A DNA stretch of 64,000 nt from an uncultured Lentisphaerota bacterium (GCA_903889245.1 CAISWQ010000028.1:70677-134676), one strand, 5' to 3'. Counted from the stretch's first letter, positions 3,226 to 46,451 are shown. Notes: generated by a model from the letters alone, not told the origin. Numbers and translations are program-made.

Positions 3226-5709
3226 ATGAGTGATGAGCGATCCTTGAGTTCGATGCCCACGCAGCCGCGCGGGAACAAGCCGTCCAAGCCGGGCGCGAAC
3301 CTGATGCCCGGCGAGGAAGACCTTAGCGCCGCCCCGACCAGCCCCAAACCGGACGCCCTCTCACGCCGCTTCAAAAAAGGCGAGGTCCTGCTGCGGCGTT
3401 ATCGCGTGGAGGGCGAACTGGGCCAGGGCGGCATGGGGGTGGTCTATCGGTGCTACGACGAAACGGGCGGCATCGAGGTGGCGCTCAAGGCGCTGCCCCC
3501 GGATCTCTCGCACAACAGCAACGAGATGGAGGAGGTCCGCGAAAATTTCCAGCTCGTGGAGAAGTTGCACCAGCGCAATATCGCGGCGATCAAGACCCTG
3601 GAGCGCGACGACGAAGGCAACTACTACCTCGTGATGGAATGCGTGGCCGGCATGAACCTGCGCCAGTGGCGCCGGGCCGAGCTGAAAAACCTGGCCCTGG
3701 TCGCCGGCCCCAAGCCGCCCCAGGTGCTGGACATCAAAACCGTGCTGCCGCTCGTGCGCCAGATCGCGGTGGCGCTCGATTATGCGCACGAGCAGCGGAT
3801 CATCCACCGGGATATCAAGCCTTCCAACATCATGGTGGCCGCCGACGGCGGGGTGAAGGTGCTGGACTTCGGGCTGGCCGCCCAGATGCATTCCTCGCGT
3901 TCGCGCATCAGCCAGGTACACTTCGGCACGAGCGGCACCGGCCCCTACATGGCCCCCGAACAGTGGGAGGGGCAATACCAGGACGCGGCGACCGATCAAT
4001 ATGCCCTGGCCGCCACGACCTATGAACTGCTGGCGGGGAACGCGCCCTTCGAGGGCCACGAAATTTCCATCCTGCGCGAGGCCGTGCTCCGCACGGCGCC
4101 GGCGCGGATTCCCGGCCTTGCGGAGGTCGTATGGGCCGCGTTGCAGAAGGGACTGGCCAAACGGCGCGAGGAGCGCTTTGCCTCCTGTGCGGATTTCGTG
4201 GACGCGTTGGCAGGGCAGAAGCCGCAGCAGATGCCCGCCGCGCCGCCACCGCCGCCACTACCTCCGCCCCGCCCAATGCCGCAGGCGCGGAAGGGCGTGC
4301 CGGCCTGGGCTGTGGCCGCGGCGATCCTCGTCGCGGGCGGACTGGCCGCCTATTGGCTGCTGCCCGGTCAGCAAGCCACCGCGCCGGCGAAGGTCACCCA
4401 ACAAGCCGGTGGCGCCAGCACGGAATCCACTGCCGCGCCAGCGGTCACGTTGGCCGAGGTTGCGTCCGTGCGCAGCGCGGCCGAGCTCAAATGGTCGCGG
4501 GTCCAAACACTGGAACGGAACTCGATCCTGGGCGCGCGGATGGATGGCGCCGAAGTCATGCGTGGCGCCGCGCAAATCTTCTTCGACAACAAGGAGTATG
4601 CGCTGGCGTTGGAGAAATACCGGCAGTTCAGCGCGGCATGCGATGCCCTGCTGGCCACGGCCGAGCCGCGGTCCTCGGTGAAAACCAAACGCGGCACCAC
4701 GACCGCCTCGCGCTATGGCATGGGGACACAACAGCCGGTCCGTCCGGTCGAGCCAACCAAAGATCCGCAGGCGACGCTGGTGGAGGATGTGCTACGCAAA
4801 CAAAAATCTGCCGCAGCGGCGCGCGAGAAGCTGGTCACGCTCAACCGGGAATACGGCTTTGGCGCCAGTCTGGAGCGGGCGGAACTGCTCTGGCAGGCGG
4901 CGGAGACCGCGCGCAACGCGCAGCAGTGGAGCGAGGCCGGCGGCGGCTATGAAAAATATGTGGCGGAAAGCCAGCGGTTGCAGGAACTCGATGGCCAGCG
5001 GCAACAGGCGCTGACCGCCGCGCATCAGGCCAGCGCCGCCAAACAGTCGGCCGCGCTGGCGGGCGCGGCGGAATGTGTGGCGGAGCAATGGGCGCCCATC
5101 GTCGAGGCCCTGCGCAGCGCCGATAAACTGCTCGAACAGGGTCTGTTTGCCGACGCGGAGCGCAGCTATCAAACCACCGCGCGCAACCTGGCCGCGCTGG
5201 AGCAGACCGCCAGACAGCACAGGGCCTATCGTCAGGCCAGGAGCGACTACGAGGCGGCACTGGCTCAAGCCAACATCAGCCGGCTGAATGAATATGGCGG
5301 CGAAGCGTGGGCGGCGGCCCGGTTGCAGGCGCAACTCGGAGCCAGCCGCAGCAATGATCCCGCCGGCGGCCTGACCTATTATCAGCAAGCCTTGGCCAAG
5401 CTGCCCACCGCCATCGCCGCGGCGGAAGCCGGGCCGAGGAAGACGGTGGGAACGCCCTCCCTTGCGCCCGCCGGCACCATGCCGGCCGTGGCCGGCAAAC
5501 GCGTCTGCCCGACCTGCCAAGGCGCCAAGACGGTGGAGAACTTCAACAAGCAGAATTGCAGCGCGTGTGGCGGCCGCGGCGTCTATGCGACGCAGGTGGG
5601 CGCGCGGCGCGGTGCGGCGGTTTCCAACTGCCCGTTCTGTAGCGGGACCGGGAAAGGCAAGTCGGTGCGCGTCACCTGCGGAACCTGTGGCGGCACGGGT
5701 TCCCTTTGA
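3226..5709 (+). CDS. Ser/Thr protein kinase (Hanks-type) with TM segment, coiled-coil region and C-terminal DnaJ-type CxxCxGxG zinc-finger repeats
   Basis: GxGxxG (LGQGGMGVVY), VAIK-like EVALKAL, HRDIKPSN, DFG and MAPEQ motifs are all present. C-terminus has CPTCQGAKTV...CSACGGRGV...CPFCSGTGKG...CGTCGGTG. A GGAG ribosome-binding site lies upstream of the ATG at 3226; the ORF also allows a start at 3202. Confidence 0.85.
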   Translation: MSDERSLSSMPTQPRGNKPSKPGANLMPGEEDLSAAPTSPKPDALSRRFKKGEVLLRRYRVEGELGQGGMGVVYRCYDETGGIEVALKALPPDLSHNSNEMEEVRENFQLVEKLHQRNIAAIKTLERDDEGNYYLVMECVAGMNLRQWRRAELKNLALVAGPKPPQVLDIKTVLPLVRQIAVALDYAHEQRIIHRDIKPSNIMVAADGGVKVLDFGLAAQMHSSRSRISQVHFGTSGTGPYMAPEQWEGQYQDAATDQYALAATTYELLAGNAPFEGHEISILREAVLRTAPARIPGLAEVVWAALQKGLAKRREERFASCADFVDALAGQKPQQMPAAPPPPPLPPPRPMPQARKGVPAWAVAAAILVAGGLAAYWLLPGQQATAPAKVTQQAGGASTESTAAPAVTLAEVASVRSAAELKWSRVQTLERNSILGARMDGAEVMRGAAQIFFDNKEYALALEKYRQFSAACDALLATAEPRSSVKTKRGTTTASRYGMGTQQPVRPVEPTKDPQATLVEDVLRKQKSAAAAREKLVTLNREYGFGASLERAELLWQAAETARNAQQWSEAGGGYEKYVAESQRLQELDGQRQQALTAAHQASAAKQSAALAGAAECVAEQWAPIVEALRSADKLLEQGLFADAERSYQTTARNLAALEQTARQHRAYRQARSDYEAALAQANISRLNEYGGEAWAAARLQAQLGASRSNDPAGGLTYYQQALAKLPTAIAAAEAGPRKTVGTPSLAPAGTMPAVAGKRVCPTCQGAKTVENFNKQNCSACGGRGVYATQVGARRGAAVSNCPFCSGTGKGKSVRVTCGTCGGTGSL

Positions 5710-5850: not shown

Positions 5851-5872
5851 CGCCGCAACAAAGGACCGGACC

Positions 5873-6706: not shown

Positions 6707-9700
6707 ATGAAATCCTTTGAAGAAAGCCTGGGGAGCAGTCCAACGCTGACCGGCGCGCCGACCAAGGCCACCGCGACGCTGGAGGCTGACGCGGTGCTGG
6801 GCAGCTACCGGATCGTGCGGCTGCTCGGCGCGGGCGGGATGGGCGCGGTCTATCTGGCCGAGCACATCCAGTTCAAGACGCGGCACGCGCTCAAGACCAT
6901 CCGGCCGGAATTCGCCAAGCAGCAGAACTTCGCCGAGCGCTTCCAGCGCGAAGCCAAGCTGGCGACGCGGCTCAAGCATCCGCATATCGTCGCCTGCACG
7001 GAGACTGGTGTTGCGGAAGGCACACCCTATCTGGTGATGGACTATGTCGAAGGCCCGGCCGGCGAACCGCTGAACCTGCGCCAGTTGCTCGATCAGCGCC
7101 GCGAGCGCGGCGATCTGCTCGGCGAGGACGAGGCCGCCGCCGTCGGCTTGGAAATCTGCAAGGCGCTGGATTATGCCCACAGCTATCGCGACGCCGAGAT
7201 CCCCAACGGCATCATCCATCGCGACCTGAAGCCCGCCAACATCCTTCTCGATAAGGACACCAAGCTCTACATCGCCGACTTCGGTTTGGCGCGGATGCTC
7301 GGCGAGAAGTACGAGGAGAGCATCGTGCAGGCCCACTCGCTCTCGCTCGGAGAACAGGCGACGCTCGGCAAGCCGGTCTCGGTCAGCGCCGACACCGTCG
7401 GGACCTTTGACTACATGAGCCCGGAGCAGCGCGAGGGTCGCACCGCTGACGCGCGCAGCGATGTGTATGCGATGGGCGTGATTCTCTATGAACTGCTGAC
7501 CGGCCGCAAAGTGATCGGGGTTCCCAAACCGCCCAGCCAAGTGCGCCCCGGCCTGGACCCGATATGGGACGACATTATCCTGTCACGCTGTTTAGCCTAC
7601 GAGCCGGAGGAACGCTATGCCACGGCGGGCATGATGTGCCGCGCGATCGAGGGAGTCCGCTCCAAGTCGAACCTTGCGCAACAGACCGCCACCGGTTTCC
7701 AAGCCTTGGAAAAACCAGCGCCAACGTTTTCCAACCATGGGAAACCAATGGCCATTAAAGGTCTGGCCCTCGCCGCTGTTTTGGTCGGAGCGGGCTTGGC
7801 CGCGTGGTGGTTGAGGGAGCTGCTTCCGCAGACCTCCTCGCCGGTTACAAACGCGGTTCAGGCCGCAGCGCTCCTGCCGCCCGCGCCGACGACGAACCCG
7901 GTTGTGACATCAACAGTTAAAACACCGGCTACGGCCCCCGCGCCTGCGGTGAAGATGGAATTTGCAGCTATCTCCATTACCTGTTCGGAACCCGCGCGCA
8001 TTCTGCCCTTGGAGGTTGGCCAACCGACGGTATACGATTTACCACACCACAAACTGCAAGTCGTGAGCCCGGGATTGTCCGGCTGTCAGCTTCTGGCAGT
8101 TCCACTCCAAAAGGTCATCACCTTTGAGATACGCGTAAACCAAGACGGGGTTCTCTATGTCATTGGGAGTGGTAAGAAATCGCTGCGTTCCCTCGGCAAC
8201 GAAGAAAGCGCAAAGTGGGAGGATGCTACCGGCATGATTAGCGGTGCGGCGGTCAACCTCTGCCTCCGTCGCAAGGCTGTCCGCGGCGAAATTATCCAGT
8301 TGCAAGGGACCGATCTGCGTTTTGTGGCCAAAAGCATCGAGGTTGTGTCTGACGAGAAACCGGAATCCCTCACGAAGCCAGCTGCGCCGTCACCCGCAGT
8401 CGTGCCGCAGCCCGCTGTGCAACCCGGCCAACAATGGACCAACAGCCTCGGCATGGTTTTCGTGCCGGTGCCGGGGACGAAGGTGCAGTTCTCAATCTGG
8501 GATACGCGCGTTCAGGACTACCAAGCCTTCGTCACCGCCACGGGCCGCACGTGGGAAAAACCTAACTTCGGGCAAGGTCCGATGCACCCGGCAGTCAACG
8601 TCAGTTGGGATGATGCCAAGGCTTTCTGTGCATGGCTAACGGAGAAAGAGCGACGCTCTGGCACGTTGGTCGCTCCCCGGCGATACCGTTTACCGACGGA
8701 TCTTGAGTGGAGTGTTGCTGTAGGTTTGGGGAACGAATCCGGGGCCACACCACAAGAGAGGGATGGCAAAATCCGCGGCGTTTACCCGTGGGGTACGCAA
8801 TGGCCTCCACCATCTAGCGCTGGCAACTTTTTTGTGAAGAAATCCAAGGCTGGCAAGGTTGATGACTTCTATAATACCAGCCCTGTGGATAGCTTCGCTG
8901 CCAACCGCTTCGGTCTCTATGATATGGGTGGGAATGTCTGGCAGTGGTGCGAGGATTTCTATGATGGGCAGAACGGTGCGCGTGTGTTGCGTGGCGGGGC
9001 ATGGAAGAGTTTAGGTGGCGGCGGAAATGAACCCGACCTTTTCTTGTCTTCTCGTCGCACCCACTCGCCCCCCATGAAGGGCAACAGCTATCGTGGGTTT
9101 CGTTGTGTGCTGGCAGATGAGGGGATGACTGCGTCGCAAACTCCGTCAGGCGCAACCAACACGGTGGTCAGTTTGCCAGCGCCAACACCCGCTGTAGTTT
9201 CATCGCCCTCCATTGTGCAGTCCGGCCAGCGATGGACCAATAGCCTTGGCATGGTCTTCGTGCCGGTGCCGGGGACGAAGGTACTGTTTAGTATCTGGGA
9301 GACGCGTATGAGGGACTACGCCGCCTATGCGCGTGCAAACCACAACGTGGATAATAATTGGCAACAGGCCTCGTACTATGGGGTGAAGGTAAGCGATGGT
9401 CCCGAGTATCCAGTTAGCGACGTTAGCTGGGCTCATGCAAAAGTGTTTTGTCTGTGGTTGAGAGAGAAGGAACAGAAGGAGGGCGTGCTTGGGCCTAATC
9501 AAAAATATCGCTTGCCGACCGATTTGGAATGGAGCACAGCGGTTGGTTTGGAAGTTGAAGTAGGGCGCACTCCAAGGGAGCGCCATAGGCGCACCGGCAA
9601 TGAATACCCATGGGGCACGCAATGGCCACCGCCACGAAGTGTCGGTAACTACGCGGATCAAACCGCCAAGGTCGGACTGTTGTATCCAAGCGACAAGTCT

Positions 9701-9994
9701 AAGAAATTGGTCAGCATCGAAGGTTACGAGGATGGCTTTGCGACTACGGCCCCAGTGGGTAGTTTCCCCGCCAATCGCTATGGCTTGTTCGATATGGGGG
9801 GTAATGTTGCAGAGTGGTGCGAAGATTGGTTCGACTACAGTCAAGACCGCCGGGTGTGCCGTGGTGGTTCCTGGTTCAGTTCAAGCCGCGACTCTATACT
9901 GTCCGCATTCCGCGAGCTAAGCAATCCTCTTGGGGCGGACCGCTTTACTGGTTTTCGGGTGGTATTGGAGGGTGCGTTTGCGCTCCAGAAGTAG
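6707..9994 (+). CDS. Ser/Thr protein kinase - TM - two FGE-sulfatase (formylglycine-generating-enzyme-like, PF03781-type) domains
   Basis: Kinase motifs GAGGMGAVY, ALKTI, HRDLKPANILL, DFGLAR and MSPEQ. There are two repeats of WTNSLGMVFVPVPGTKV...YRLPTDLEWS...GNVWQWCEDFY...RVLRGG. Neither FGE domain has the catalytic Cys pair. Confidence 0.9.
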   Translation: MKSFEESLGSSPTLTGAPTKATATLEADAVLGSYRIVRLLGAGGMGAVYLAEHIQFKTRHALKTIRPEFAKQQNFAERFQREAKLATRLKHPHIVACTETGVAEGTPYLVMDYVEGPAGEPLNLRQLLDQRRERGDLLGEDEAAAVGLEICKALDYAHSYRDAEIPNGIIHRDLKPANILLDKDTKLYIADFGLARMLGEKYEESIVQAHSLSLGEQATLGKPVSVSADTVGTFDYMSPEQREGRTADARSDVYAMGVILYELLTGRKVIGVPKPPSQVRPGLDPIWDDIILSRCLAYEPEERYATAGMMCRAIEGVRSKSNLAQQTATGFQALEKPAPTFSNHGKPMAIKGLALAAVLVGAGLAAWWLRELLPQTSSPVTNAVQAAALLPPAPTTNPVVTSTVKTPATAPAPAVKMEFAAISITCSEPARILPLEVGQPTVYDLPHHKLQVVSPGLSGCQLLAVPLQKVITFEIRVNQDGVLYVIGSGKKSLRSLGNEESAKWEDATGMISGAAVNLCLRRKAVRGEIIQLQGTDLRFVAKSIEVVSDEKPESLTKPAAPSPAVVPQPAVQPGQQWTNSLGMVFVPVPGTKVQFSIWDTRVQDYQAFVTATGRTWEKPNFGQGPMHPAVNVSWDDAKAFCAWLTEKERRSGTLVAPRRYRLPTDLEWSVAVGLGNESGATPQERDGKIRGVYPWGTQWPPPSSAGNFFVKKSKAGKVDDFYNTSPVDSFAANRFGLYDMGGNVWQWCEDFYDGQNGARVLRGGAWKSLGGGGNEPDLFLSSRRTHSPPMKGNSYRGFRCVLADEGMTASQTPSGATNTVVSLPAPTPAVVSSPSIVQSGQRWTNSLGMVFVPVPGTKVLFSIWETRMRDYAAYARANHNVDNNWQQASYYGVKVSDGPEYPVSDVSWAHAKVFCLWLREKEQKEGVLGPNQKYRLPTDLEWSTAVGLEVEVGRTPRERHRRTGNEYPWGTQWPPPRSVGNYADQTAKVGLLYPSDKSKKLVSIEGYEDGFATTAPVGSFPANRYGLFDMGGNVAEWCEDWFDYSQDRRVCRGGSWFSSSRDSILSAFRELSNPLGADRFTGFRVVLEGAFALQK

Positions 9995-12299: not shown

Positions 12300-12385
12300 T
12301 CGGAAGAACGCGTCCACTTGGCGACCTTGGCGTCTTGGCGGTTTCTTTTGGGGCGAAGCAATAGCAAGGCAAAGGTGGCACGATG
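12300..12385 (+). promoter_or_regulatory. Conserved 5' leader of the kinase paralogs (...ggcgtcttggcggtt...cgatagSaatgcaaNggtgNcaccATGaaaccatttgag) with GGTG-n-CACC inverted repeat abutting the start codon
   Basis: The same ~85-bp leader precedes the kinases at 23065, 37255 and 40462 (copies at 22985..23067, 37185..37257 and 40385..40464). Confidence 0.6.
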
Positions 12386-37254: not shown

Positions 37255-40143
37255 ATGAAACCAAGTGACGAAAGTCTGGGCAGCAGTCCAACGCTGACGG
37301 GCAAGCGCGACCATGCCGCGGTTGAGGCGCTGGCGGCAGGCACGGTGCTGGGTAACTATCGCATCGTGCGCTTCCTCGGCGCAGGCGGAATGGGCGCGGT
37401 CTATGTGGCCGAACACATCCACCTGAAGACCCGTCACGCCCTCAAGACGATTCGCCCCGAGTTCGCCCGACGGCCGGGCTTCGAGGAGCGCTTCCTGCGC
37501 GAGGCGCGGTTGACGGCGCACCTCAAGCATCCGCATATCGTGCCTTGCTCCGACGCCGGAGTGGCCAACGGCACGCCTTATCTGGTGATGGACTACATCG
37601 AGGGCCCGGCCGGCGAGCCGCTGAACCTGCGCCAGTTGCTCGATCAGCGCCGCGAGCGCGGCGAGCTGCTCGACGAAGACGAGGCCGTGGCCGTCGGCTT
37701 GGAAATCTGCAAGGCGCTGGACTATGCCCACAGCTTCCGCGACGCCGAGATTCCCCACGGCATCATCCATCGCGACCTGAAGCCGGGCAACATCCTCCTC
37801 GACAAAGACACCAAGCTCTACATCGCCGACTTCGGGCTGGCGCGGCTGGTGGGCGAGAAGTTCGAGGAGAACGTGGTGCAGGCGCATGCGCTCTCGCGTT
37901 CGCTGGGCGAGGAGCCCACGCTGCGCGGCGGTACATCCTCGACCAGTTCCGATGCGGTCGGCACCTTCGACTACATGAGCCCGGAGCAGCGCGAAGGCCG
38001 CACCGCCGACGCGCGCAGCGATGTCTATGCGCTCGGCGCGATCCTCTATGAACTGTTGACGGGGCGTAAAGTGGTGGGCGCGCCCGCGCCGCCCAGCCGG
38101 GTGCGACTTGGCTTGAATCCCGTGTGGGACGACATCATTCTTGGTAGATGCCTCGCCTACGAACCAAATGACCGCTACCCCACCGCCGGCGAACTCGCCC
38201 GCGCCATTGAGCGCACCTGTTTCCAACCCTTGGAAAAACCGCCCCAGGCGCGCTCCCCCTCGGCTTCGCTCGGGGCAGGCAATCCTTGGGAAACCGGTAA
38301 GAAAGCGAAAATAATCGGGGCCATCGCTGCCGGCATCGCAGGTGTGCTGGTTGTGGGGAGCATGGTGAAGTGGCTTGCCAGCTCCGAACAAAAGCCAGTT
38401 CCGCCTGAACAGAAGTTGGCGAAGGAAGTGACAACAAACACATCCGCAAGCGTAGGGACACCACAATCCAAGCCGTTTGCGGACATTTTGGATAGCCCGA
38501 CGCACCCGCCCACAGTCATGGTGATGCCGTCACCCGCCAAAGAGAAGACGCCGGAGAGAAAAACCCCGCCTGTTCACCCCTCTTTGGATATGCCTTTCGA
38601 GAACAGCTTGGGCATGCAGTTTGTGCCTGTTACCGGGACGAAGGTGCTGTTTTGTAAATGGGAGACGCGGGTGCAGGACTTCGAAGCGTTTGTGAAGGCG
38701 ACTGGCTATGACGCGACCGAGGACATGTATTCACTTCGCAATGCTGTTTTTGAGAGACACGGAGACATGTGGAAAACCCCGGGCTTTGACCAAAGTCCGC
38801 TGCATCCTGTCTGTGGGGTTAATTGGGATGATGCGCAAGCATTTTGCAATTGGTTGACAGAAAAGGAAAGGAACGATGGAAGAATTCTATCGAACCAAAT
38901 CTATCGGTTACCGACAGATTTGGAATGGAGTGCAGCGGTGGGGTTACCTTCTGAAAACGGGGCCTCTCCAAAATATAGGAATGGGATGATTAAAGATGTG
39001 TATCCATGGGGTGATACATGGCCGCCGCCACACGGAGCCGGAAATCTAGCGGGAGAAGAATTGCGTGGCAATGATTGGTTTCCAGACCTTGGATTGATCG
39101 CGGGTTATAATGATGGATATCAACGAACCGCACCGGTAGGTAGTTTCAAAGCTAATCAATATGGATTGTTCGATATGTCGGGCAACTTGTGGGAGTGGTG
39201 CGAGGATTGGCTTGATGATGGGCAGACGAATCGGGTCTTACGCGGCGGTTCTGCGCTCGTTAATACCCCCAAGTTTCTCATGTCATCATTCCGCTATGAT
39301 ATAGGTCAGCCCCAGTTCCGGATTGCCGAAATAGGTTTCCGGGTGGTGTTGGGGCTGTCCTTCCAAGCTGAAGTTGACTTGGCCCAAACCAAACCTGTAA
39401 CTACCCGTTTTATAGTTGAGCGTACAGTTGGCGAAGTGTTCACGGTGGATTTGGGCGGCGGTGTGAAGATGGAGTTCGCCTGGATTCCGCCGGGCGAATT
39501 CCTGATGGGCAGCCTAGGAAGTGAAACCAGTCGGAGCGATGATGAGACACAACATCGCGTGACACTTAGCAAAGGCTTCTGGATGGGAAAGACGGAGGTG
39601 ACGCAAGCGCAATGGGAACGAGTGATGGGCAGCAATCCCTCTTATTTCAAAGGTGCCAACCTGCCGGTGGAGACCGTGAGGTGGAACGACTGCCAGGAGT
39701 TTATTGGGAAGATAAATGTGAAATGTGAAATAGGAAATTGGAAAGCGAGTCTGCCGACGGAGGCGCAATGGGAATATGCCTGCCGGGCGGGGACAAAGAC
39801 GCGTTTCAACACGGGCGACACAGAGGCCGACTTGACGCGCGCGGGTTGGTATGGCAGCAACAGTGACCATAAAACACACTCGGTGGGCGAGAAGGAGGCG
39901 AACACATGGGGCTTGTTGGATATGCACGGAAATGTCTGGGAATGGTGCCAAGACTGGTTCGGGAAGTATGAGAGTGGCATGGCGCGCGATCCCACCGGGC
40001 CAAGTTCTGGGTCGAACCGGGTTTTGCGGGGCGGTTCGTGGTACTGCAGTTCCGGGTACTGCCGGTCAGCGTACCGCTACAGGTTCGAGCCCGGCGATCG
40101 GGACAACGACATCGGCCTGCGGGTGGTGTTGCTGCCGCGCTGA
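37255..40143 (+). CDS. Ser/Thr protein kinase - TM - two FGE-sulfatase domains; the C-terminal unit retains the FGE catalytic Cys pair
   Basis: Kinase motifs are present. The C-terminal RVLRGGSWYCSSGYCRSAYRYRF matches the FGE active-site C-x4-C...YRYR signature (human FGE CHRSYCYRYR). Confidence 0.9.
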   Translation: MKPSDESLGSSPTLTGKRDHAAVEALAAGTVLGNYRIVRFLGAGGMGAVYVAEHIHLKTRHALKTIRPEFARRPGFEERFLREARLTAHLKHPHIVPCSDAGVANGTPYLVMDYIEGPAGEPLNLRQLLDQRRERGELLDEDEAVAVGLEICKALDYAHSFRDAEIPHGIIHRDLKPGNILLDKDTKLYIADFGLARLVGEKFEENVVQAHALSRSLGEEPTLRGGTSSTSSDAVGTFDYMSPEQREGRTADARSDVYALGAILYELLTGRKVVGAPAPPSRVRLGLNPVWDDIILGRCLAYEPNDRYPTAGELARAIERTCFQPLEKPPQARSPSASLGAGNPWETGKKAKIIGAIAAGIAGVLVVGSMVKWLASSEQKPVPPEQKLAKEVTTNTSASVGTPQSKPFADILDSPTHPPTVMVMPSPAKEKTPERKTPPVHPSLDMPFENSLGMQFVPVTGTKVLFCKWETRVQDFEAFVKATGYDATEDMYSLRNAVFERHGDMWKTPGFDQSPLHPVCGVNWDDAQAFCNWLTEKERNDGRILSNQIYRLPTDLEWSAAVGLPSENGASPKYRNGMIKDVYPWGDTWPPPHGAGNLAGEELRGNDWFPDLGLIAGYNDGYQRTAPVGSFKANQYGLFDMSGNLWEWCEDWLDDGQTNRVLRGGSALVNTPKFLMSSFRYDIGQPQFRIAEIGFRVVLGLSFQAEVDLAQTKPVTTRFIVERTVGEVFTVDLGGGVKMEFAWIPPGEFLMGSLGSETSRSDDETQHRVTLSKGFWMGKTEVTQAQWERVMGSNPSYFKGANLPVETVRWNDCQEFIGKINVKCEIGNWKASLPTEAQWEYACRAGTKTRFNTGDTEADLTRAGWYGSNSDHKTHSVGEKEANTWGLLDMHGNVWEWCQDWFGKYESGMARDPTGPSSGSNRVLRGGSWYCSSGYCRSAYRYRFEPGDRDNDIGLRVVLLPR

Positions 40144-40384: not shown

Positions 40385-40464
40385 GCTTTCCGTCCTTGGC
40401 GCGCTTGGCGTCTTGGCGGTTGTCCTTCGGTCGGGAACGATAGGAATGCAATGGTGGCGCCATG
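40385..40464 (+). promoter_or_regulatory. Conserved kinase 5' leader copy (GGTGGCGCCATG start-codon palindrome)
   Basis: See 12300..12385; cgataggaatgcaatggtggcgccatgaaaccatttgag. Confidence 0.6.
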
Positions 40465-43275
40465 AAACCATTTGAGGACAGCCTGGGCAGCAGCCCGACG
40501 CTGACGGGCGCGCTGGCCAAAGCCACCGCGACGCTGGTGGCAGGCACGGTGCTGGGCAATTACCGGATTGTGCGGCTGCTGGGCGCGGGCGGGATGGGCG
40601 CGGTCTATCTGGCCGAGCACATCCAGCTCCAGACGCGGCACGCGCTCAAGACCATCCGGCCGGAGTTTGCCAAGCAGCAGAATTTCGCCGAGCGCTTCCA
40701 GCGCGAGGCCAAGCTGGCGACGCGGCTCAAGCATCCGCACATCGTCGCCTGCACGGAGACCGGCGTCGCCAATGGCACGCCCTATCTGGTGATGGATTAC
40801 ATCGAAGGTCCGGCCGGCGAGCCGTTGAACCTGCGCCAGTTGCTCGACCAGCGTCGCGAGCGTGGTGAACTGCTCGACGAGGACGAGGCCGCCGCCGTCG
40901 GCTTGGAAATCTGCAAAGCGCTGGACTATGCCCACAGCTACCGCGACGCCGAGATCCCCAATGGCATCATCCACCGCGACCTGAAGCCCGCCAACATCCT
41001 GCTCGACAAGGACACGAAGCTCTACATCGCCGACTTCGGGCTGGCCCGCTTGCTCGGCGAGAAATTCGAGGAGAGCGTGCAGGCCTATGCGCTCTCCAAG
41101 TCGCTGGGCGAACAGGCGACGCTCGGCAAGCAGGTCTCGGTCAGCGCCGACACGGTCGGCACCTTCGACTACATGAGCCCGGAGCAGCGCGAAGGCCGCA
41201 CCGCCGACGCGCGCAGTGACGTCTTCGCAATGGGCGTGATCCTCTACGAACTGCTGACCGGGCGCAAAGTGGTGGGCGTGCCTGCACCTCCTGGCGTGGT
41301 ACGGCCGGGGCTCTCCTCGAAGTGGGAAGAGATAATACTGGAGCGGGCGCTCGCCTATGAACCCGGTGAGCGTTTTGCCACGGCCGGAGATTTCTGCCGC
41401 GCCATCGAGGGCGTCCCGCTCAAGCCGGTGGCAACACCTCCACCGCTGGAGGCAAAACCAGTCCCTCCACCGCCCCCTCAACCGCCAGCACCAAAGCAGG
41501 AGGAACCCGTCGCCCCGCCCCCACCTCCCGAAACACCTCCGCAACCCGATTCAGAACAGGCCCAGGAGTCTGTTGTTGAAAAATTCGGGGAACCAGACCC
41601 GCGGACCACAGCCAAAGTCATGGCTGTTATTACTGTTTTGGTGGTCGCTGGCCTGGCATGGGTGATATCAAAGTGGCCATCTTCACCCACCGGCGCACAG
41701 CCAAACTGGGCAACGAGAATGGCCACATCATCTATTCCGGTAAGCGTGAACACCCCGACGCCGCAACCATTGGTAACAAATCCCGTGATCGCGCCACCTG
41801 TGACGTCAACTGCGCCCGACTTGGAGAGTCTGCGGCGCGGTTTGGTCTTGTACTTCAGCTTCGACAACATCCAAGGGGATCAGGTTCTTGACGACAGCGG
41901 CCTCGGCAGCCACGGCACCCGCAAGAGTACTACCGTGACATCCGGCATCGCCGGAAGCGCCCTTGACTTCTTCAACGATGACGCCGTCGTCACGGTTCCC
42001 AATCACCCTTCGCTGAACCTGGAGAAAGCTTTGACTCTGTCTGCATGGGTTCGGGGCGGGCCCAATCAATCAAAGGGTTATCCGCGTATCATTGATAAAT
42101 TCATCTGGACGGGTCAACAAGGTTACGCGTTGAAGATCTTGACCGAGAGCGGCAGAGGTAGATTGGCTCTGTTCCCAACGGGTGACCAGTCCTACCGGGT
42201 CTTTAACGCGGATAGCCTGAACGAGGCCCTACTGGACGACCAGTGGCGCCATCTCACCGGTACATTCGATGGCTCGGAACTTCGATGCTATGTAGACGGT
42301 GTTTTAAGCGGAACGACCTACTGTGAGAGTCAGATTGTGACCGCCGACAAGGAATTGACTATCGGGAATGGCTTTGATGGTGCTGCATGGCTTCCATTCA
42401 AGGGTTCGATTGACGAGGTGGCCATCTTCAACCGCGCGCTTTCGGGCGATGAGGTTAAGCAGCTTCATGACCTCGGCAAGCGCGGACAGAGCTTGAGCAA
42501 GCCGGGCGCGCCGCCGACCCGTGATCCGGCTACCTCATTACAACCGGCTGTGCCGTCATCACCGGCGGTTACGATGCCGCCGGAAATTCAGGACTTGTTC
42601 ACACCGGCCGTTACATCTTTACCGGCAGATGAGCGACTAACCCGCGTCCTGGCCAAAATGAGGGAATTAAATCCTGCGTTCCGAGGCAACGTTAAATCCA
42701 ATCAAGTTAAATCCGGGTTGAAGAAAATAGCGTTTGAGAAGGGCGCGGTCATCACCAACCTTTGGCCCTTGCGTTCCTTGGCGGCCACCCTGACGGAACT
42801 ACACTGCCGAAGCAAAAGCCTCGAAGACCTCACGCCACTCAAGGGTATGCAGCTGACTCACTTGGATTGCGCCGATAGTCAGGTAAGCGATCTCTCCCCT
42901 CTGCGGAGTATGAAGAGCCTGCGTACCATCAATTGTTGCGGCACACGCATCCATGATCTGTCTCCACTGGAGGGGTTACCCTTGCGATGGCTGGGGATGA
43001 ACGGGACCAGGGTTGCTGATCTCACTCCGCTTACTGGGATGCCATTGGAATTTCTTGGGTTCCCTCGAACGGCAGTTACCGATTTGTCTGTGCTGAAAAC
43101 TCTGCCCAAGCTGCGCAAAGTGAAGTGTGACTTCAAGGCTGATCGCGATGCAGGCATCCTGCGCTCAATCAAGACGCTGGAAGAAATCAACGGTATGCCA
43201 GTCAAGGAGTTCTGGACGCATGTTAATGCCGGTGAATCGCCACAGGCCAAACCAGATGAAGATGATAGAATCTAA
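40462..43275 (+). CDS. Ser/Thr protein kinase - TM - LamG/concanavalin-like domain - C-terminal leucine-rich repeats
   Basis: The kinase head is near-identical to 6707 and 12383. The LamG-like block is LVLYFSFDN...ALTLSAWVRGG...LTIGNGFDG. LRR units LxxLxxLxxLxL occur in LTELHCRSKSLEDLTPLKGMQLTHLDCADSQVSDLSPL.... Confidence 0.85.
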   Translation: MKPFEDSLGSSPTLTGALAKATATLVAGTVLGNYRIVRLLGAGGMGAVYLAEHIQLQTRHALKTIRPEFAKQQNFAERFQREAKLATRLKHPHIVACTETGVANGTPYLVMDYIEGPAGEPLNLRQLLDQRRERGELLDEDEAAAVGLEICKALDYAHSYRDAEIPNGIIHRDLKPANILLDKDTKLYIADFGLARLLGEKFEESVQAYALSKSLGEQATLGKQVSVSADTVGTFDYMSPEQREGRTADARSDVFAMGVILYELLTGRKVVGVPAPPGVVRPGLSSKWEEIILERALAYEPGERFATAGDFCRAIEGVPLKPVATPPPLEAKPVPPPPPQPPAPKQEEPVAPPPPPETPPQPDSEQAQESVVEKFGEPDPRTTAKVMAVITVLVVAGLAWVISKWPSSPTGAQPNWATRMATSSIPVSVNTPTPQPLVTNPVIAPPVTSTAPDLESLRRGLVLYFSFDNIQGDQVLDDSGLGSHGTRKSTTVTSGIAGSALDFFNDDAVVTVPNHPSLNLEKALTLSAWVRGGPNQSKGYPRIIDKFIWTGQQGYALKILTESGRGRLALFPTGDQSYRVFNADSLNEALLDDQWRHLTGTFDGSELRCYVDGVLSGTTYCESQIVTADKELTIGNGFDGAAWLPFKGSIDEVAIFNRALSGDEVKQLHDLGKRGQSLSKPGAPPTRDPATSLQPAVPSSPAVTMPPEIQDLFTPAVTSLPADERLTRVLAKMRELNPAFRGNVKSNQVKSGLKKIAFEKGAVITNLWPLRSLAATLTELHCRSKSLEDLTPLKGMQLTHLDCADSQVSDLSPLRSMKSLRTINCCGTRIHDLSPLEGLPLRWLGMNGTRVADLTPLTGMPLEFLGFPRTAVTDLSVLKTLPKLRKVKCDFKADRDAGILRSIKTLEEINGMPVKEFWTHVNAGESPQAKPDEDDRI

Positions 43276-43308: not shown

Positions 43309-44211
43309 ATGACCATGAAAACCGATGACGCCATGTGTTGCATCTGCGGGCGGGAGCTGCCGAACCGGTATGCGGCGGGGCCGTTGCAGCGGTGTGGCGC
43401 GCCGGACTGCGAGGCGCGGTTCTGCGACCTGCATTGGCAGCGGAGTAATCAGCGCTGTCCACGGCATGGCTATCAAGCGAAGGAGCCGACGAGCGCAAAG
43501 CCGGCATTTGCCTCGGCCACCAAGTTCGGCAACACGGAGCAAGCGGCGCGTGTGAATCCACAGCCGGAGCAGCCCAAGATTTCGCTGCTGCGCGCGGCTC
43601 TGGCCAGGTTATGGCCGGCGTTGGTGGCGCTGTTCCGCAAGGTGAAGAAGGATCGCTCGCCGGAAGGAATGCTGCGCACCGTGGAGGCCGCGCTGGCGGC
43701 CAACACCGCGCGCCGCGAGCCGCTGGGCGCAGAGTTGGAAAAGCAATTCCACGAGATCGCCGCCAAAAAGAAACTCTACGAAGCCGCGCCCGCCGCCCGC
43801 AAGGCGGCGTTGGAGGGCGAACTCAAGTTGCTGCTCGCCGGCTATCGCGCCAGGGAGAACGAGTTCCAGCGCCTGCTCGAAAACGAAGTCACGCTGACGC
43901 AGGTCAAGGGGAGGCTCAACGAGCTCATCGCGCAGAAACTCGCCGGCGTGACCGAGGGCGACCTGGACAAGCTGACGGACGAAGTCACCGAGGCTGTGGC
44001 CTTGGCCGAAGAGCGGCAGGATGCCGCGCGCGATCTGGAGCAGGCCGGTCGCCGCCGTGAGCAGGAGAGCGCCCGCGAAGCCTTCGCCGAGGAACTCCAA
44101 GCCTTTGCCGAGTCCGCTCCATCTACCCCCACTGCCCCAGCCGCCGAACCGCCCGCCCCCGCCGTGGAGCAACCTCCGCCAACCAAAGAACCAGAACCGC
44201 CGGAGGGGTGA
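43309..44211 (+). CDS. Zinc-finger + coiled-coil protein (paralog of 49472..50164)
   Basis: N-terminus has CCICG...CGAPDCEARFCDLHW..CPRHG. The coiled coil LAANTARREPLGAELEKQFHEIAAKKKLYEAAPAARK...VTEGDLDKLTDEV aligns with the ESCRT-operon protein LAANTTKREALAAALEKQFATIAAKKKAYETAPPARK...VTEAAIDQLIDEV. Confidence 0.7.
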   Translation: MTMKTDDAMCCICGRELPNRYAAGPLQRCGAPDCEARFCDLHWQRSNQRCPRHGYQAKEPTSAKPAFASATKFGNTEQAARVNPQPEQPKISLLRAALARLWPALVALFRKVKKDRSPEGMLRTVEAALAANTARREPLGAELEKQFHEIAAKKKLYEAAPAARKAALEGELKLLLAGYRARENEFQRLLENEVTLTQVKGRLNELIAQKLAGVTEGDLDKLTDEVTEAVALAEERQDAARDLEQAGRRREQESAREAFAEELQAFAESAPSTPTAPAAEPPAPAVEQPPPTKEPEPPEG

Positions 44212-44261
44212 CACATGGAGAGCTTGAAACCAAACTCCATCCCAGACAGGAGCTATGCAAC

Positions 44262-46451
44262 ATGAATGACATCTATTTCCTCTGTCCTCATTGCCGGCAA
44301 CGCTTGGAAGCCCCGGCGGATTTGGCAGGCATGAGCATCAACTGCCCCTCGTGTGACAAGAGGATCAAAATACCCGACATGCCTGTGCAGCCATCACAGG
44401 TTTCCAATTTGAGTGGCGCCAAGACCTTGGTGGGCGCCATGCCATCGGAGCAAACCAATCTGGTCGGCCGGCTGTTCGGCAAGGACCTGGTGAAATCCAA
44501 GATTGCCGAGGGCGGGATGGGCTCGGTCTGGCTGACCGAGCACACAGAACTGAAGGTGGCCCGCGCCCTCAAGACCATGCCGGAAGGATTTGGTTCCCAG
44601 CCGGAACTGGTGCAACGCTTTCAGCAAGAGGCCAAGATTCTGGCCCATCTGCATCACGCCAACATCGCCCAGATCTATGACTTCGGTTGCGAGGAAGGCG
44701 TCTATTACTTCATCATGGAATATCTGCCCAATGGCAGCTTACGCTCCCGGCTGCGTCCCGCCGGGACACGGTTGCCTTGGAGAAATGCCCTGAAGATTTT
44801 GGACGAAGTCTGCGCCGGCTTGGAGTACGCCCACGGCAAAGGCATTGTCCATCGCGACATCAAACCCGAGAACATCCTGCTTGATGAGCAAGGCCATCCG
44901 AAGATTGCCGATTTTGGTCTGGGGAAGATCTTGCACGACGTTGTGCGGAGCCAATCCGGCTCACTCATCATGGGCCAGCAGGCCGTGGTCAAAGATGTGA
45001 ATTTGAGTGCGCTGCCCACCCTGCGCCCGGGCTCGCCGCCACCGCTCAAGCCGGGAGGTTCATCCGCTCCCGCCAACATGACCATGATGGGACAGGTCGT
45101 CGGCACAATGGACTACATGAGTCCCGAACAACGCCGGGGTGCGGAAGTTACACCGCAGAGCGACATCTATTCGCTGGGTGTCACTTTCTACGAGATGTTG
45201 ACGGGCGAGTTGCCGTCGGGGATGGACATGCCCAGCGAACGCGGCTGTGACTGCCCGCCGGGCGTGGACGCGCTCGTCAAACGGATGCTCGCACCACCAG
45301 ACAGACGCTTCCGTTCGGCACATGAGGTCCGCGAGGCCATCGCTTTGGCAGATCGTCAGCCAGCCGCACCGCCACTCCCGAAGGAATCCGGGAGTGGGTG
45401 GAAGATTCTTGCAGGATTTCTGATTGGTTTTCTCATCGTGGCTCTTATCGGGATTGGTTTTGCCCTCTATCAACGTTCAGTGCGGAAAGGCTCGACTACG
45501 GGGCCAGAAGCAGATGCCGCTAGCAAGGGAAGCTCAAGGGCGATAGCGGGGCGCGACAGCGTTAAGCGAGAACGTTACACGGCACTCCTCTCCCAAGCCA
45601 AACTCGCAGAGGCCGACCGGCAATGGCAAACCGCGGTGAATGCCTACGAGGCGGCGATCGCACTGTTCGACGAACCGGAAGCTCGTTCCGGCCTCTCCCG
45701 CGTCGCGAACACGCGGGACATGGAACAGGTGGCCGCCCGCAAGAGTGCGGATTATAGCCGTCTTCTCGCGGATGCAGAGCAGGCGGAAAGGAATGGCGAC
45801 CTCTTGACTGCACAGAAAGCATACGAGCGTGCCGCCGCAGCCGCGCCTACGGAACAAGATCGTTTGCAAGCAGAGACAAAGGCCCGGAAAGCTAGCGACA
45901 GCATTGCTAATCAGAAAAAGAAGGCCGTCTTTGATAGCCTCGTACAACAAGCCAGAGACGCCGAGAGCAAGAAAGACTGGCAGGGGGCCGTGGACATCTA
46001 CATGAAGGCCGCGGCGGCGGCACCCGACGAAACCTTGGCGACACAGGTACGTGCCCGCGAAAGCCAACTTGTGGCCTTCATAACAAGCCAAGCCCAGATA
46101 AAGAAGCAGGTGAATCAAACCATGACACTTTGTTATATTATCTGGTCTAGCAAAATTGAAAGGCGCTATCCAGCATCTGATCAGCTTGTTGACGGTACGG
46201 GGAATGTACTTGGGGATATAAGTTTCGAGCTATATCAAGATGATAATTCGGATTGGCACGTAGGTTTATTTTTGAAAAAAGGAAAAAACAAAACAAGGAT
46301 ATGTGATTTTGAACCCGGCGATGTAATTGGACAAACTAGAACGGGCCAAGTAGAAGGGGTATCCTTTTCTTGTAGGGTGATTGAGATTAATCGTATGGGA
46401 TCCTCAACACTCATTGAGAAGCTAACTGTTCAGGTTACGATTAGGCGGTGA
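44262..46451 (+). CDS. Ser/Thr protein kinase with N-terminal zinc ribbon, TM segment, TPR-like region and novel C-terminal domain
   Basis: N-terminus has CPHCRQ...CPSCDKR. Kinase motifs AEGGMGSVW, ARALKTM, HRDIKPENILL, DFGLGK and MSPEQRRG. An AGGAG ribosome-binding site lies upstream of the ATG at 44262; the track ORF uses a GTG at 44208. Confidence 0.85.
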   Translation: MNDIYFLCPHCRQRLEAPADLAGMSINCPSCDKRIKIPDMPVQPSQVSNLSGAKTLVGAMPSEQTNLVGRLFGKDLVKSKIAEGGMGSVWLTEHTELKVARALKTMPEGFGSQPELVQRFQQEAKILAHLHHANIAQIYDFGCEEGVYYFIMEYLPNGSLRSRLRPAGTRLPWRNALKILDEVCAGLEYAHGKGIVHRDIKPENILLDEQGHPKIADFGLGKILHDVVRSQSGSLIMGQQAVVKDVNLSALPTLRPGSPPPLKPGGSSAPANMTMMGQVVGTMDYMSPEQRRGAEVTPQSDIYSLGVTFYEMLTGELPSGMDMPSERGCDCPPGVDALVKRMLAPPDRRFRSAHEVREAIALADRQPAAPPLPKESGSGWKILAGFLIGFLIVALIGIGFALYQRSVRKGSTTGPEADAASKGSSRAIAGRDSVKRERYTALLSQAKLAEADRQWQTAVNAYEAAIALFDEPEARSGLSRVANTRDMEQVAARKSADYSRLLADAEQAERNGDLLTAQKAYERAAAAAPTEQDRLQAETKARKASDSIANQKKKAVFDSLVQQARDAESKKDWQGAVDIYMKAAAAAPDETLATQVRARESQLVAFITSQAQIKKQVNQTMTLCYIIWSSKIERRYPASDQLVDGTGNVLGDISFELYQDDNSDWHVGLFLKKGKNKTRICDFEPGDVIGQTRTGQVEGVSFSCRVIEINRMGSSTLIEKLTVQVTIRR

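Follow-up and report, generated by a model that had tools for sequence, protein, structure and literature searches.

Kinase genes of the array

Within the window (the whole stretch of 64,000 nucleotides from an uncultured Lentisphaerota bacterium that was analysed here), 43 kb between positions 3202 and 46451 carry eleven open reading frames that match the Pkinase family (E 1e-35 to 1e-46; Pfam, HMM scan). All eleven score 123-157 bits against PF00069, for which the cut-off is 31.7. Ten of the genes lie on the plus strand and one, K11, on the minus strand; the original prediction had likewise counted eleven kinases in 43 kb, without mentioning that one of them lies on the minus strand. The beta3 Lys, alphaC Glu, HRD Asp, DFG Asp and (A/S)PE motif are kept in every one of them, in agreement with the catalytic motifs that had been predicted, the APE motif reading SPE in 10/11 and the G-loop of K10 lacking its first Gly. 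Hydropathy (Kyte-Doolittle, 19-aa window >1.6) predicts one TM helix past the kinase domain for nine of the eleven, several for K11 and none for K3.

Seven of the kinases (K2 and K4 to K9) constitute a narrow family, defined by an M(K/T)PFEESLGSSPT-like start and a head of ~320 aa. At all seven positions that had been named as common starts (6707, 12383, 15729, 20344, 23065, 37255 and 40462), an ATG is indeed followed by the common peptide, although the K5 version is degenerate (MRSGEESLSDSPSIVG). All seven lie on the plus strand and continue from the head into a predicted TM helix and a tail of one kind or another. In K2 (6707..9994), the tail comprises a beta domain and two FGE-sulfatase-like domains without the FGE Cys pair. 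K4 (12383..15673) carries 14 Sel1 repeats (E 7.5e-157) in a tail built of tandem repeats of 108/216 nt, some copies of which are 96% alike, and closes with a weak STN-like end that stays under the Pfam cut-off (24.7 against 28.4 bits). K5 (15729..20282) has two FGE-like domains followed by Laminin_G_3 and 3keto-disac_hyd (DUF1080), and K7 (23065..26802) has three FGE-like domains (FGE-sulfatase E 4e-119, 3 stretches). K8 (37255..40143) has two, the last of which keeps the CxxxxC pair YCSSGYCRSAYR as in a true FGE. The tail of K6 (20344..22578) is helical and ends in a CXXCXGXG zinc finger, and that of K9 (40462..43275) consists of Laminin_G_3 and LRR_4. The sets of FGE, LamG, DUF1080, Sel1 and LRR domains proposed for these tails are thus borne out by the domain searches, the STN domain being the exception.

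The four remaining kinases are divergent. K1 (3226..5709, plus strand; Pkinase E 3e-41) has a predicted TM helix at aa 365-387, followed by a helical tail whose C-terminus forms a zinc finger of the DnaJ-type CXXCXGXG pattern, scoring under the cut-off (DnaJ_CXXCXGXG E 1e-4). K3 (10175..11983, plus strand), called as 602 aa, joins a kinase that is 34-37% identical to the family heads to one FGE-like domain. K11 (28790..30262, minus strand; Pkinase E 1.1e-45) has hydrophobic C-terminal segments and no large tail. Finally, K10 (44208..46451, plus strand) has a zinc-ribbon-like CxxC pair at its N-terminus and an activation loop of 70 aa, and past a predicted TM helix it carries a tail of helical and beta parts. 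The activation loop is unusually long in the family (47-50 aa; up to 57 aa when K3 is included) and measures 29 aa in K1 and K11.

The conserved family unit consists of a Ser/Thr-rich N-terminal peptide and the kinase domain, preceded in four genes by a leader of ~70 nt that abuts the ATG (40395..40461 on the plus strand for K9, 12317-12382 for K4, 22996-23064 for K7 and 37190-37254 for K8). The leader contains CTTGGCG direct repeats and an AGGTGG ahead of the ATG, and its conservation exceeds that of the first 90 nt of coding sequence. An Rfam scan returned one tRNA only; neither leaders nor repeats matched a known RNA family.

Close relatives of the array are poorly sampled, and the nearest heads outside it, 50-60% identical, mostly carry short membrane tails (MamF_MmsF, RDD, DUF805, GYF_2). 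A profile search of genome contigs with the head alignment gave, among the matches listed, generic kinases of at most 41% identity only, and a motif scan of metagenomes for the family gave two contigs only. Small tandem arrays of family kinases are present on L087 and L088. FtsH homologues place the genome among the Verrucomicrobiota. Two related contigs whose FtsH is 88-89% identical lack the array beside that gene, so that local synteny offers no means of dating it.

Conversion of the head core and age of the family

The family heads were expected to be near-invariant, which they are not: they share 67-86% of their amino acids, with 143/330 head positions invariant, and 75-86% of their nucleotides over ~930-1000 nt (BLAST). 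Overall head dS is 0.5-1.1 and dN/dS 0.12-0.38, and the cytoplasmic unit is hence under purifying selection. Heads are nonetheless much more alike than tails, as had been proposed. The further claim of ~95% nucleotide identity among the kinase domains of K2, K4 and K9 fits the core of the head (nt 91-585, 91-94% identical) and fails for whole heads at 75-86%. Similarly, the segment at 6790-6990 is 94% identical to K4, where the matching stretch is 12466-12666 and not 12480-12680.

Divergence is distributed very unevenly along these heads. Among K2, K4 and K9, pairwise dS is 0.24-0.41 in nt 91-585 and runs from 1.8 to saturated in nt 766-966, an eight-fold heterogeneity inside the heads, while identity at third positions is 79-83% in the core vs 36-45% at the head 3' end (Fisher p ~1e-9). 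The tract of high similarity in K2 covers head nt 91-765 (6797..7471, plus strand), with counterparts at ~12473-13150 in K4 and ~40552-41226 in K9. K7 and K8 form a reciprocal mosaic with a break at ~nt 315, such that K7 is nearer to K2/K4/K9 in nt 1-315 and K8 is nearer in nt 316-765; bootstrap support is 1.0 in both directions, also at third codon positions, and the MaxChi permutation p is <= 0.001. Together, the mosaic and the drop at third positions support the view, already part of the original prediction, that the head core (nt ~91-765) has been homogenised among the paralogues by gene conversion. A note of caution concerns composition: under the null, four-fold sites would be identical at 0.45 in heads vs 0.29 in tails, and the high GC3 of heads lowers their apparent dS, so that the synonymous contrast between head and tail is partly compositional.

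It could be argued that selection on kinase function, with no conversion between copies, suffices to keep the heads alike. The low dN/dS and the many invariant positions would fit such a reading, as would the inflation of synonymous identity by high head GC3. However, selection at the protein level cannot produce a switch of nearest relative between K7 and K8 at ~nt 315 that is also seen at third positions, nor a fall in third-position identity from ~80% to ~40% within one gene pair, and we therefore regard purifying selection alone as very unlikely.

The first option of the original prediction was recent duplication, in which case the heads would be alike as the copies are young and the tails would have been replaced soon after. 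The genes are adjacent and on the same strand, K4, K7, K8 and K9 remain homologous for 66-240 nt ahead of the ATG, and the cores of K2, K4 and K9 are 91-94% identical. Against this, head dS amounts to 0.5-1.1 overall and to at least 1.2 in head nt 766-966, synonymous sites have reached saturation at the head 3' end, and so have the four-fold sites of the homologous tails. Moreover, the kinase segment of K8 is 84% identical to P0018, a protein from another metagenome, vs 68-79% to its own paralogues, which implies that the paralogues are older than that species split. Recent duplication is accordingly highly improbable, and the old family with a converted core remains the reading that we prefer.

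Tails, junctions and palindromes

The PF03781 domain is found in K2, K3, K5, K7 and K8 (E 1.7e-31 to 4.4e-119). Among the domains captured by motif search, which are part of the total, the FGE Cys pair (CxxxxC after RGGS(W/F)) is absent from those found in K2 (both), K3, K5 and K7, K8 alone keeping it, as YCSSGYC in its last domain; most FGE-like domains would then be without catalytic cysteines. By sequence, the K3 domain has its closest PDB relatives in PorK/GldK, which are not enzymes.

Contrary to the expectation that everything after the TM helix differs between the kinases, several tails are related. K7 and K8 are collinear, with 62.6% identity over 967 aa and tails that are 59% identical, and are by their sequences whole-gene paralogues. 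K5 has its first ~940 aa in common with both and is collinear with them over ~960-1030 aa at 45%, and its tail is 45-47% identical to that of K2. K1 and K6 are likewise collinear (35% over 849 aa), and here the tail is more conserved than the head (50% vs 38%). The FGE domain of K3 is 59% identical to FGE1 of K7/K8, though the kinases are as distant as noted above. Family tails include FGE/C-type-lectin-like, Sel1, LamG plus LRR, and coiled-coil plus zinc finger types, and two tail types have no homology to the remaining tails.

Some tails match proteins outside the array. The K2 ectodomain (aa 405-811) is 57% identical to a TIR-TM-FGE protein (P0352), above its identity to any local tail. In the K9 tail, each half has its own matches among other proteins (LamG+FGE, TIR+LamG+FGE and Pkinase+LRR), no match spanning more than 57% of the tail, and the pairing of LamG with LRR was not found in other proteins matched. 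The possibility that the K2 tail was formerly a separate signal-anchored gene found no support, given that the kinase-free P0364 (469 aa) is without an N-terminal TM helix. Composition also changes along the genes: in K2, K4, K7, K8 and K9, GC3 is 0.74-0.87 in heads vs 0.55-0.62 in tails, and the change sits near aa 280-360, at the same position in six genes; in K10 it is lower on both sides (0.71 vs 0.52). Because there are non-homologous tail types, a GC3 break at the junction and the same TM and ectodomain on a TIR head, the cassette-like swapping put forward earlier is supported, and the TM helix with its tail behaves as an exchangeable cassette, bounded on the kinase side directly past the final helix of that domain.

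Chimeras and mosaics of this kind could in principle arise if similar kinase genes were joined or collapsed during assembly, the contig being metagenome-assembled and repeated heads a classic cause of mis-joins. Nevertheless, the exact K2, K4 and K9 proteins occur on 7-9 contigs of up to 163 kb (NCBI, ENA), all 11 open reading frames are intact with a coherent domain order, the heads differ by 14-25% and are too divergent for collapse, and the GC3 shift recurs at one position in six genes. An assembly artefact is hence hardly credible.

The junctions themselves hold a short palindrome. In K2, two REP-like palindromes lie at 7694..7746 on the plus strand (TTTCCAAGCCTTGGAAA and a second copy 32 nt on; PWM 33.6 and 20.2 bits), in frame between the kinase domain and the TM helix and coding FQALEK...FSNHGK, and the homology of the head to its paralogues stops at 7629-7662. 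Two more occupy the K3 linker (11132..11184, plus strand; aa 355-371; PWM 23.5 and 22.4 bits; spacing 32 nt), again in frame, between the kinase and the FGE-like domain. A single one in K8 (38218..38238, plus strand; PWM 32.6 bits) codes FQPLEK in frame, 3 aa past the last kinase helix. Head homology of K8 to its paralogues stops at 38210-38214, 4-8 nt ahead of the palindrome (BLAST), and P0018 has this palindrome at the identical CDS position.

Outside the genes, an array of four 17-nt palindromes with a 31-nt period and variable spacers lies upstream of K8 (36944..37057), and similar arrays are found at 3046-3097, 12216-12267, 30536-30618, 46626-46740, 60948-61031 and 63371-63423. A PWM scan gave 26 matches of at least 14 bits vs 0.05 expected, 20 of them intergenic; one more, at 63371, falls on the first part of a long ORF that in truth probably begins further downstream. 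Palindrome pairs also occur in seven intergenic spacers of related Verrucomicrobia contigs (one in L081, six in L082). The palindrome is thus a REP-like element, mainly intergenic and lineage-wide and often in pairs 31-32 nt apart; the ORFs annotated in the window include no RAYT-type transposase.

The presence of this element, in frame, at the head/tail junctions of K2, K3 and K8 is new here. All five in-CDS copies lie at such junctions and always in one reading frame, and the codons TTC CAA nnn TTG GAA AAA have a probability of ~0.006 given the peptide; the palindrome is found at only 3/11 kinase/tail junctions. These copies might go back to a single old event, in which the element entered a linker that tolerated it and was then passed on to some of the paralogues; this is to our minds just as likely as a role in fusion. 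If the palindrome marks the joining of cassettes, it would show in concrete terms how bacterial receptors come to shuffle their domains.

Partners, possible functions and known systems

Several neighbouring genes could form an output module. A zinc-ribbon and SPFH/Band7 protein (31203..32798, plus strand; Pfam Band_7 E 2.8e-10) is 47% identical to a product of L086 (6614-8275), where the adjacent FHA-domain protein (32829..34457, plus strand; Pfam FHA E 1.7e-8) also has a homologue. On the minus strand lie a single-domain classical AAA ATPase of the CDC48 D2 / PAN / CdvC-like kind (47460..48584; 62% identical to L084 6174-7304) and a 208-aa helical protein (50193..50819; 63-74% identical to its orthologues in L084 and L086). 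The latter is a possible member of the ESCRT-III/Snf7 superfamily: it matches Pfam Snf7 with E 4.5e-6 at 26.9 bits vs a cut-off of 27.3, and its best PDB sequence match, in register, is SNF7 (E 0.053). Its single-sequence model (pLDDT 64) gave Foldseek matches that are not significant (E ~1), with ESCRT-III at the top probabilities of 0.57-0.69. The partner genes co-occur with family kinases in L084, L085 and L086, and by its neighbourhood the FHA protein is a candidate phospho-threonine reader for the kinases.

Taken together, we consider it probable that the array represents a tandem family of Hanks Ser/Thr kinases of the receptor type, old and specific to its lineage, with a converted head core and exchanged TM and tail cassettes. 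New pairings of head and tail would arise by fusion or recombination via repeat-bearing spacer DNA. The tails would lie outside the cytoplasmic membrane and meet different ligands, probably glycan- or protein-like, and all heads may signal to common partners, the best candidates being the FHA protein together with the membrane module of SPFH, AAA and ESCRT-III-like proteins. Such common partners would account for the heads having to stay alike, and the FHA, SPFH, AAA and possible ESCRT-III neighbours offer a testable output pathway. A bolder proposal takes the palindrome as the joint, kept at the nucleotide level, for exon-shuffling-like swaps of TM and ectodomain between Hanks and TIR heads, and has the repertoire act through phospho-threonine and FHA on SPFH/AAA/ESCRT-III-like membrane remodelling or repair. 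We think this quite unlikely to hold as a whole; if true, it would describe a bacterial surface-surveillance system with an output at the level of the membrane.

The kinases might alternatively serve as pattern-recognition-like receptors for invaders or competitors, in a sensor repertoire of the conflict or immune type, comparable to the FGE/C-type-lectin sensors linked to TIR, caspase and STAND. The TIR heads on the nearest relatives of the K2 tail, the match of the LamG half of K9 to a TIR+LamG+FGE protein and an AAA_14/DUF4143 ATPase gene inside the array are consistent with such a role. In predicted conflict systems, domains of the FGE type always occupy the C-terminal side of an effector head, which itself varies (PMC7159879), and Pkinase-TM-CLec proteins are retroelement targets in Thiohalocapsa (PMC10907252). 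On the other hand, the tails are predicted to be outside the membrane whereas phage components are met in the cytoplasm, housekeeping genes flank the locus, and PADLOC and NCBIfam gave no defence system or named family for the partner genes, the PADLOC matches being generic AAA and HTH only. Neither a reverse transcriptase nor an adenine-specific template/variable repeat was found in the window or in L088. As targets of a diversity-generating retroelement, the genes were rejected: the main ORFs scanned contain no RT domain (Pfam), and the only A-biased repeat pair of the window is intergenic and 60 nt long with 6 mismatches. L088 was dismissed as a retroelement locus as well (RVT_1 weak at 24.8 vs 29.6 bits; no template/variable pair). 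A conflict role is, in our estimate, unlikely.

Large kinase families are well established in PVC bacteria and myxobacteria. Their Hanks receptor kinases have the order that is predicted for the array as well, an N-terminal cytoplasmic kinase, one TM helix and a C-terminal ectodomain, and many Planctomycetota and Verrucomicrobiota proteins in databases carry Pkinase with LRR_4 or Pkinase with FGE-sulfatase. Unlike those families, the array clusters seven paralogues of one narrow subfamily, and conversion in the core has been measured. PVC bacteria have Hanks kinases with large ectodomains in abundance, and to our knowledge a ligand or output is known for almost none.

The PknB/PASTA kinases resemble the layout predicted for the array: a Hanks kinase is joined by one TM helix to repeats that bind ligands outside the cytoplasm, and control through the activation loop is expected in the array too. 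PknB-type kinases are as a rule encoded by one conserved gene, whereas the array has many paralogues with unrelated ectodomains, an activation loop of 47-57 aa in the family and K3, and no Pfam match to PASTA repeats in any of the 11 kinases. Clusters of plant LRR-RLK and lectin-RLK genes provide an analogy, with clustered paralogues, a conserved kinase and diverse ectodomains, and there unequal exchange or gene conversion takes place inside the clusters. Yet the lineages are unrelated, the domain order is reversed, the kinase of the array being N-terminal, and an immune role is unlikely for the array.

As to the palindromes, the element of the array recalls REP/BIME and Rickettsia palindromic elements in that it is short, occupies most intergenic spacers of its lineage and has some copies within genes; in Rickettsia, too, copies in frame within coding sequence are reported. 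The in-gene copies of the array differ in being seen only at the kinase/tail boundary, in one frame and with one of them conserved across species.

Lastly, FGE-sulfatase/C-type-lectin-fold sensors are fused to TIR, caspase, STAND or kinase heads, and some are retroelement targets (PMC7159879, PMC10907252, PMC3501461). As in the array, the FGE-like domain is C-terminal to a variable signalling head; what makes the array diverse is instead its paralogues and their exchanged cassettes, and not hypermutation of chosen targets. Overall, the array is no new system and offers a clear case of a receptor-kinase family of a kind already known from bacteria. It overturns no current view, and its worth lies in being such a case and a source of hypotheses: a compact natural experiment in which one conserved head meets at least four unrelated sensor types, with a measurable conversion tract and a sharp swap point.

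Kinase array and its setting

The window consists of chromosomal DNA of about 62% G+C, with a DUF58/BatA/VWA operon to the left of the kinase array and genes for FtsH, FolP, a PLD-type enzyme and a tRNA to its right. This FtsH shares 88% of its residues with the protein of an NCBI 'Verrucomicrobia bacterium' MAG and about 70% with its counterparts in Kiritimatiellae and Lentisphaerae, which makes the source an uncultured member of the Verrucomicrobiota (PVC). Pfam together with a locally built kinase HMM finds exactly 11 Pkinase genes between 3202 and 46451, the number originally predicted. Ten are on the plus strand (K1, 3226-5709; K2, 6707-9994; K3, 10175-11983; K4, 12383-15673; K5, 15729-20282; K6, 20344-22578; K7, 23065-26802; K8, 37255-40143; K9, 40462-43275; K10, 44208-46451), and K11 (28790-30262) alone is on the minus strand. 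As had been claimed, all 11 keep the catalytic Lys and the HRD, DFG and (A/S)PE motifs; the alphaC Glu is retained in all of them as well. Seven of them (K2 and K4 to K9) constitute a family whose predicted starts proved correct, each being an ATG followed by a MKPFEESLGSSPTLTG-like peptide, most degenerate in K5. The common head of the family, whose activation loop is unusually long (47-50 aa), ends near aa 320; after it come a Pro-rich linker and a single strongly hydrophobic helix.

The spacers of the array hold several repeated elements. An exact 20-nt hairpin, GGCCACGCTCCGTCGTGGCC, occurs in eight copies with zero mismatches (starting at 12157, 22702, 22959, 28564, 30423, 36894, 37163 and 40359), all intergenic, all on the plus strand and in most cases ahead of a kinase gene. 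A second hairpin, GGACGCGACGGAGCGCGTCC, has four copies (12106, 28459, 37122 and 40318), and no T-run is found downstream of either. Leaders of about 70 nt precede K4 (12317-12382), K7 (22996-23064), K8 (37190-37254) and K9 (40395-40461), with CTTGGCG direct repeats of period 8 and AGGTGG just ahead of the ATG; these leaders show stronger conservation than the opening 90 nt of the genes themselves, and this hints at a shared promoter or a shared site for a regulator. An AAA_14/DUF4143 ATPase gene (27061-28248) lies between K7 and the oppositely oriented K11, flanked by repeats of 104-133 nt that are 86-91% identical (26899-27002 with 28785-28888, and 28285-28414 with 28637-28769), one of which overlaps the 3' end of K11; this segment may have been inserted or rearranged. 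Outside the array, a large protein (58318-60930) has a match to the middle domain of hydrazine synthase alpha (E 2e-18) and a weak cytochrome c motif, and is adjoined by a 781-aa ORF (61034-63379) with PPC and zinc-ribbon matches; both genes have low G+C at third codon positions (GC3), as in the kinase tails.

Age of the heads and exchange between them

The kinase domains of at least K2, K4 and K9 were originally described as about 95% identical in nucleotide sequence, and the heads as products of recent duplication or gene conversion. Measured over about 950 nt, head identity is 75-86%, and 91-94% is reached only within head nt 91-585 of K2, K4 and K9. The 200-nt stretch of K2 and K4 offered as an example is indeed 94% identical, albeit only after a 14-nt shift of the K4 coordinates. 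Synonymous divergence between heads is substantial (dS 0.5-1.1, dN/dS 0.12-0.38, Nei-Gojobori), and homologous tails, with the exception of the K7-K8 pair, are no more alike at four-fold sites than random expectation (0.28-0.38, null 0.29). Moreover, the kinase segment of K8 is 84% identical to that of P0018, a partial protein from a JGI metagenome, but reaches only 68-79% when compared with its paralogues. The paralogues had thus diverged before that species split, which refutes a recent duplication.

Gene conversion among the heads, on the contrary, is upheld. Sliding windows reveal a crossing pattern in which K7 is close to K2, K4 and K9 over nt 1-315 and K8 is close to them over nt 316-765; this reciprocal switch has bootstrap values of 1.0 both ways and is also seen at third codon positions. 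MaxChi with permutation places a recombination break at head nt 313-357 (p <= 0.001). Within the heads of K2, K4 and K9 themselves, dS is 0.24-0.41 in nt 91-585 versus 1.8 to saturated in nt 766-966, and identity at third codon positions is 79-83% in the former stretch and 36-45% in the latter (Fisher p about 1e-9). High GC3 raises chance identity in the heads, for which the null is 0.45, but it can account neither for the reciprocal switch nor for the within-gene contrast. The heads are thus old, and their kinase cores have been swapped among copies.

Tails and the head-tail junction

The domains predicted for the tails were borne out by Pfam searches, save that the STN match of K4 falls under the Pfam cut-off. 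The further claim that everything after the TM helix differs holds for K4 (Sel1) and K9 (LamG+LRR), whose tails are unlike the others and have no homologue within the window, but several of the other tails are homologous. K7 and K8 are collinear throughout (62.6% over 967 aa), the first ~940 aa of K5 are common to both, the tails of K2 and K5 are 45-47% identical, and K1 and K6 have a common helical tail ending in a CXXCXGXG zinc finger. Residues 405-811 of K2 share 57% identity over 432 aa with P0352, an outside protein of zinc-ribbon-TIR-TM-beta-FGE architecture, which is above any tail in the window. For the LamG half of the K9 tail, the best matches are LamG+FGE and TIR+LamG+FGE proteins; the LRR half has many matches, among both stand-alone LRR proteins and Pkinase+LRR proteins, and no one match covers more than 57% of the tail. 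In K4, the Sel1 repeats (13908-15168) are 108/216-nt tandem DNA repeats, and the 96% identity of the copies at 14897-15144 suggests a recent expansion in repeat number.

The FGE-sulfatase-like (FGE) domains have PorK/GldK and FGE as their closest solved relatives by sequence; most are devoid of the FGE cysteine pair, CxxxxC being present only in the last K8 domain, and they are best read as putative binding modules. The kinase of K3 is only 34-37% identical to the family, while its FGE-like domain is 59% identical to FGE1 of K7/K8. Unlike other FGE-tailed kinases, K3 has no predicted TM helix, the position being occupied by a linker bearing two palindromes, so that its FGE-like domain would be cytoplasmic.

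The junction is also marked by a compositional break. In K2, K4, K7, K8 and K9, GC3 is 0.74-0.87 in the head but only 0.55-0.62 in the tail (low-GC3 spans at, for example, 8000-9994, 13600-15673, 24300-26802, 38500-40143 and 41700-43275, respectively); the corresponding values for K10 are 0.71 and 0.52. The shift is located near aa 280-360. Surrounding genes mostly have GC3 of 0.76-0.93, with 0.63-0.72 in three neighbours (34436, the hydrazine-synthase-like gene and 60878). Foreign origin, less biased gene conversion and relaxed codon selection are all possibilities for the drop.

Further, a 17-nt palindrome, TTTCCAAGSCTTGGAAA, is found in intergenic DNA (3046-3097, 12216-12267, 22760, 30536-30618, 36944-37057, 46626-46740, 60948-61031 and 63371-63423), usually as 2-4 copies with a 31-32-nt period and variable spacers. 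Scanning the window with a weight matrix built from intergenic copies yields 26 matches of at least 14 bits against 0.05 expected. The palindrome occupies the majority of intergenic spacers in this genome and in the related Verrucomicrobia contigs L081 and L082, where the same pairs occupy seven spacers (L081 7148/7180; L082 1264/1296, 5267/5299, 12798/12830, 17422/17454, 18816/18848 and 20484/20516). It has no match in Rfam and resembles a REP-like element specific to the lineage, or else an array of protein-binding sites. Five palindromes are inside well-supported genes, every one of them where kinase and tail meet (K2 aa 330 and 340, K3 aa 355 and 365, K8 aa 322); a sixth in-ORF copy (63371) coincides with the start annotated for a long ORF on the minus strand, which probably begins further downstream.

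The in-gene copies have one common reading frame, F-Q-x-L-E-K, and given this peptide the exact codons have a probability of ~0.006 per gene under local codon usage, so that the nucleotides are either under constraint or of recent repeat origin. The junction palindromes can be read in two ways, as head-tail fusion through repeat-bearing spacer DNA or as one old insertion into a permissive linker. Homology of the K8 head to its paralogues stops 4-8 nt ahead of the palindrome, P0018 retains the palindrome at the same coding position, and a family kinase on the outside contig L088 has a 31-nt-spaced pair downstream of its TM helix.

Relatives, neighbours and known systems

Outside homologues of the heads are 50-60% identical and have the activation-loop insert and an N-terminal S-x-G-D-E-K-T-like peptide in common, most of them with short membrane tails. 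On three outside contigs (L084, L085 and L086), family kinases occur among conserved neighbours, though not all neighbours are on each contig. In the window, this module spans 30687-36364, 43309-44211 and 47460-50819 and comprises an excisionase-type HTH protein (30687-31061), a zinc-ribbon + SPFH/Band7 protein (31203-32798), an FHA protein (32829-34457), a 300-aa zinc-ribbon protein (43309-44211; paralogue 49472-50473), a classical AAA ATPase (47460-48584), a 208-aa helical protein (50193-50819) and small zinc-ribbon proteins. L084 and L085 share the 300-aa protein, the 208-aa protein and the AAA ATPase, and L086 additionally has the HTH, SPFH and FHA genes.

The 208-aa protein is possibly ESCRT-III/Snf7-like: it scores 26.9 bits against Pfam Snf7 (cut-off 27.3), and its sole notable PDB sequence match is SNF7, in register (E 0.053). 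Its structure model is poor, and Foldseek gives no significant hit, with ESCRT-III proteins at the top probabilities. The HTH/SPFH/FHA/AAA module has no match to known systems. Since bacterial PspA/Snf7-family proteins linked to AAA ATPases have been described (PMC11237479), the module with its possibly Snf7-like protein and its AAA ATPase is a plausible candidate for a shared output of the kinases.

In another organism, L088 (JGI Ga0194125_10014076) carries two tandem family kinases with FGE tails at 1396-10239, adjoining an FHA-Pkinase fusion, a Cas_NE0113-family protein and an ORF with a weak reverse-transcriptase match (24.8 bits). A template/variable repeat pair was not found in L088, nor a retroelement signature in it or in the window.

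Overall, the age of the family and a bounded conversion tract, the intragenic GC3 break, the junction palindrome, the TIR-headed sister cassette of the K2 ectodomain and the conserved partner module are added here to the original prediction. The architectures themselves are familiar: Pkinase-TM-FGE and Pkinase-TM-LRR proteins are common among database matches in PVC bacteria, and the combination of varied heads with FGE/C-type-lectin domains on their C-terminal side has been described before (PMC7159879, PMC10907252, PMC3501461).
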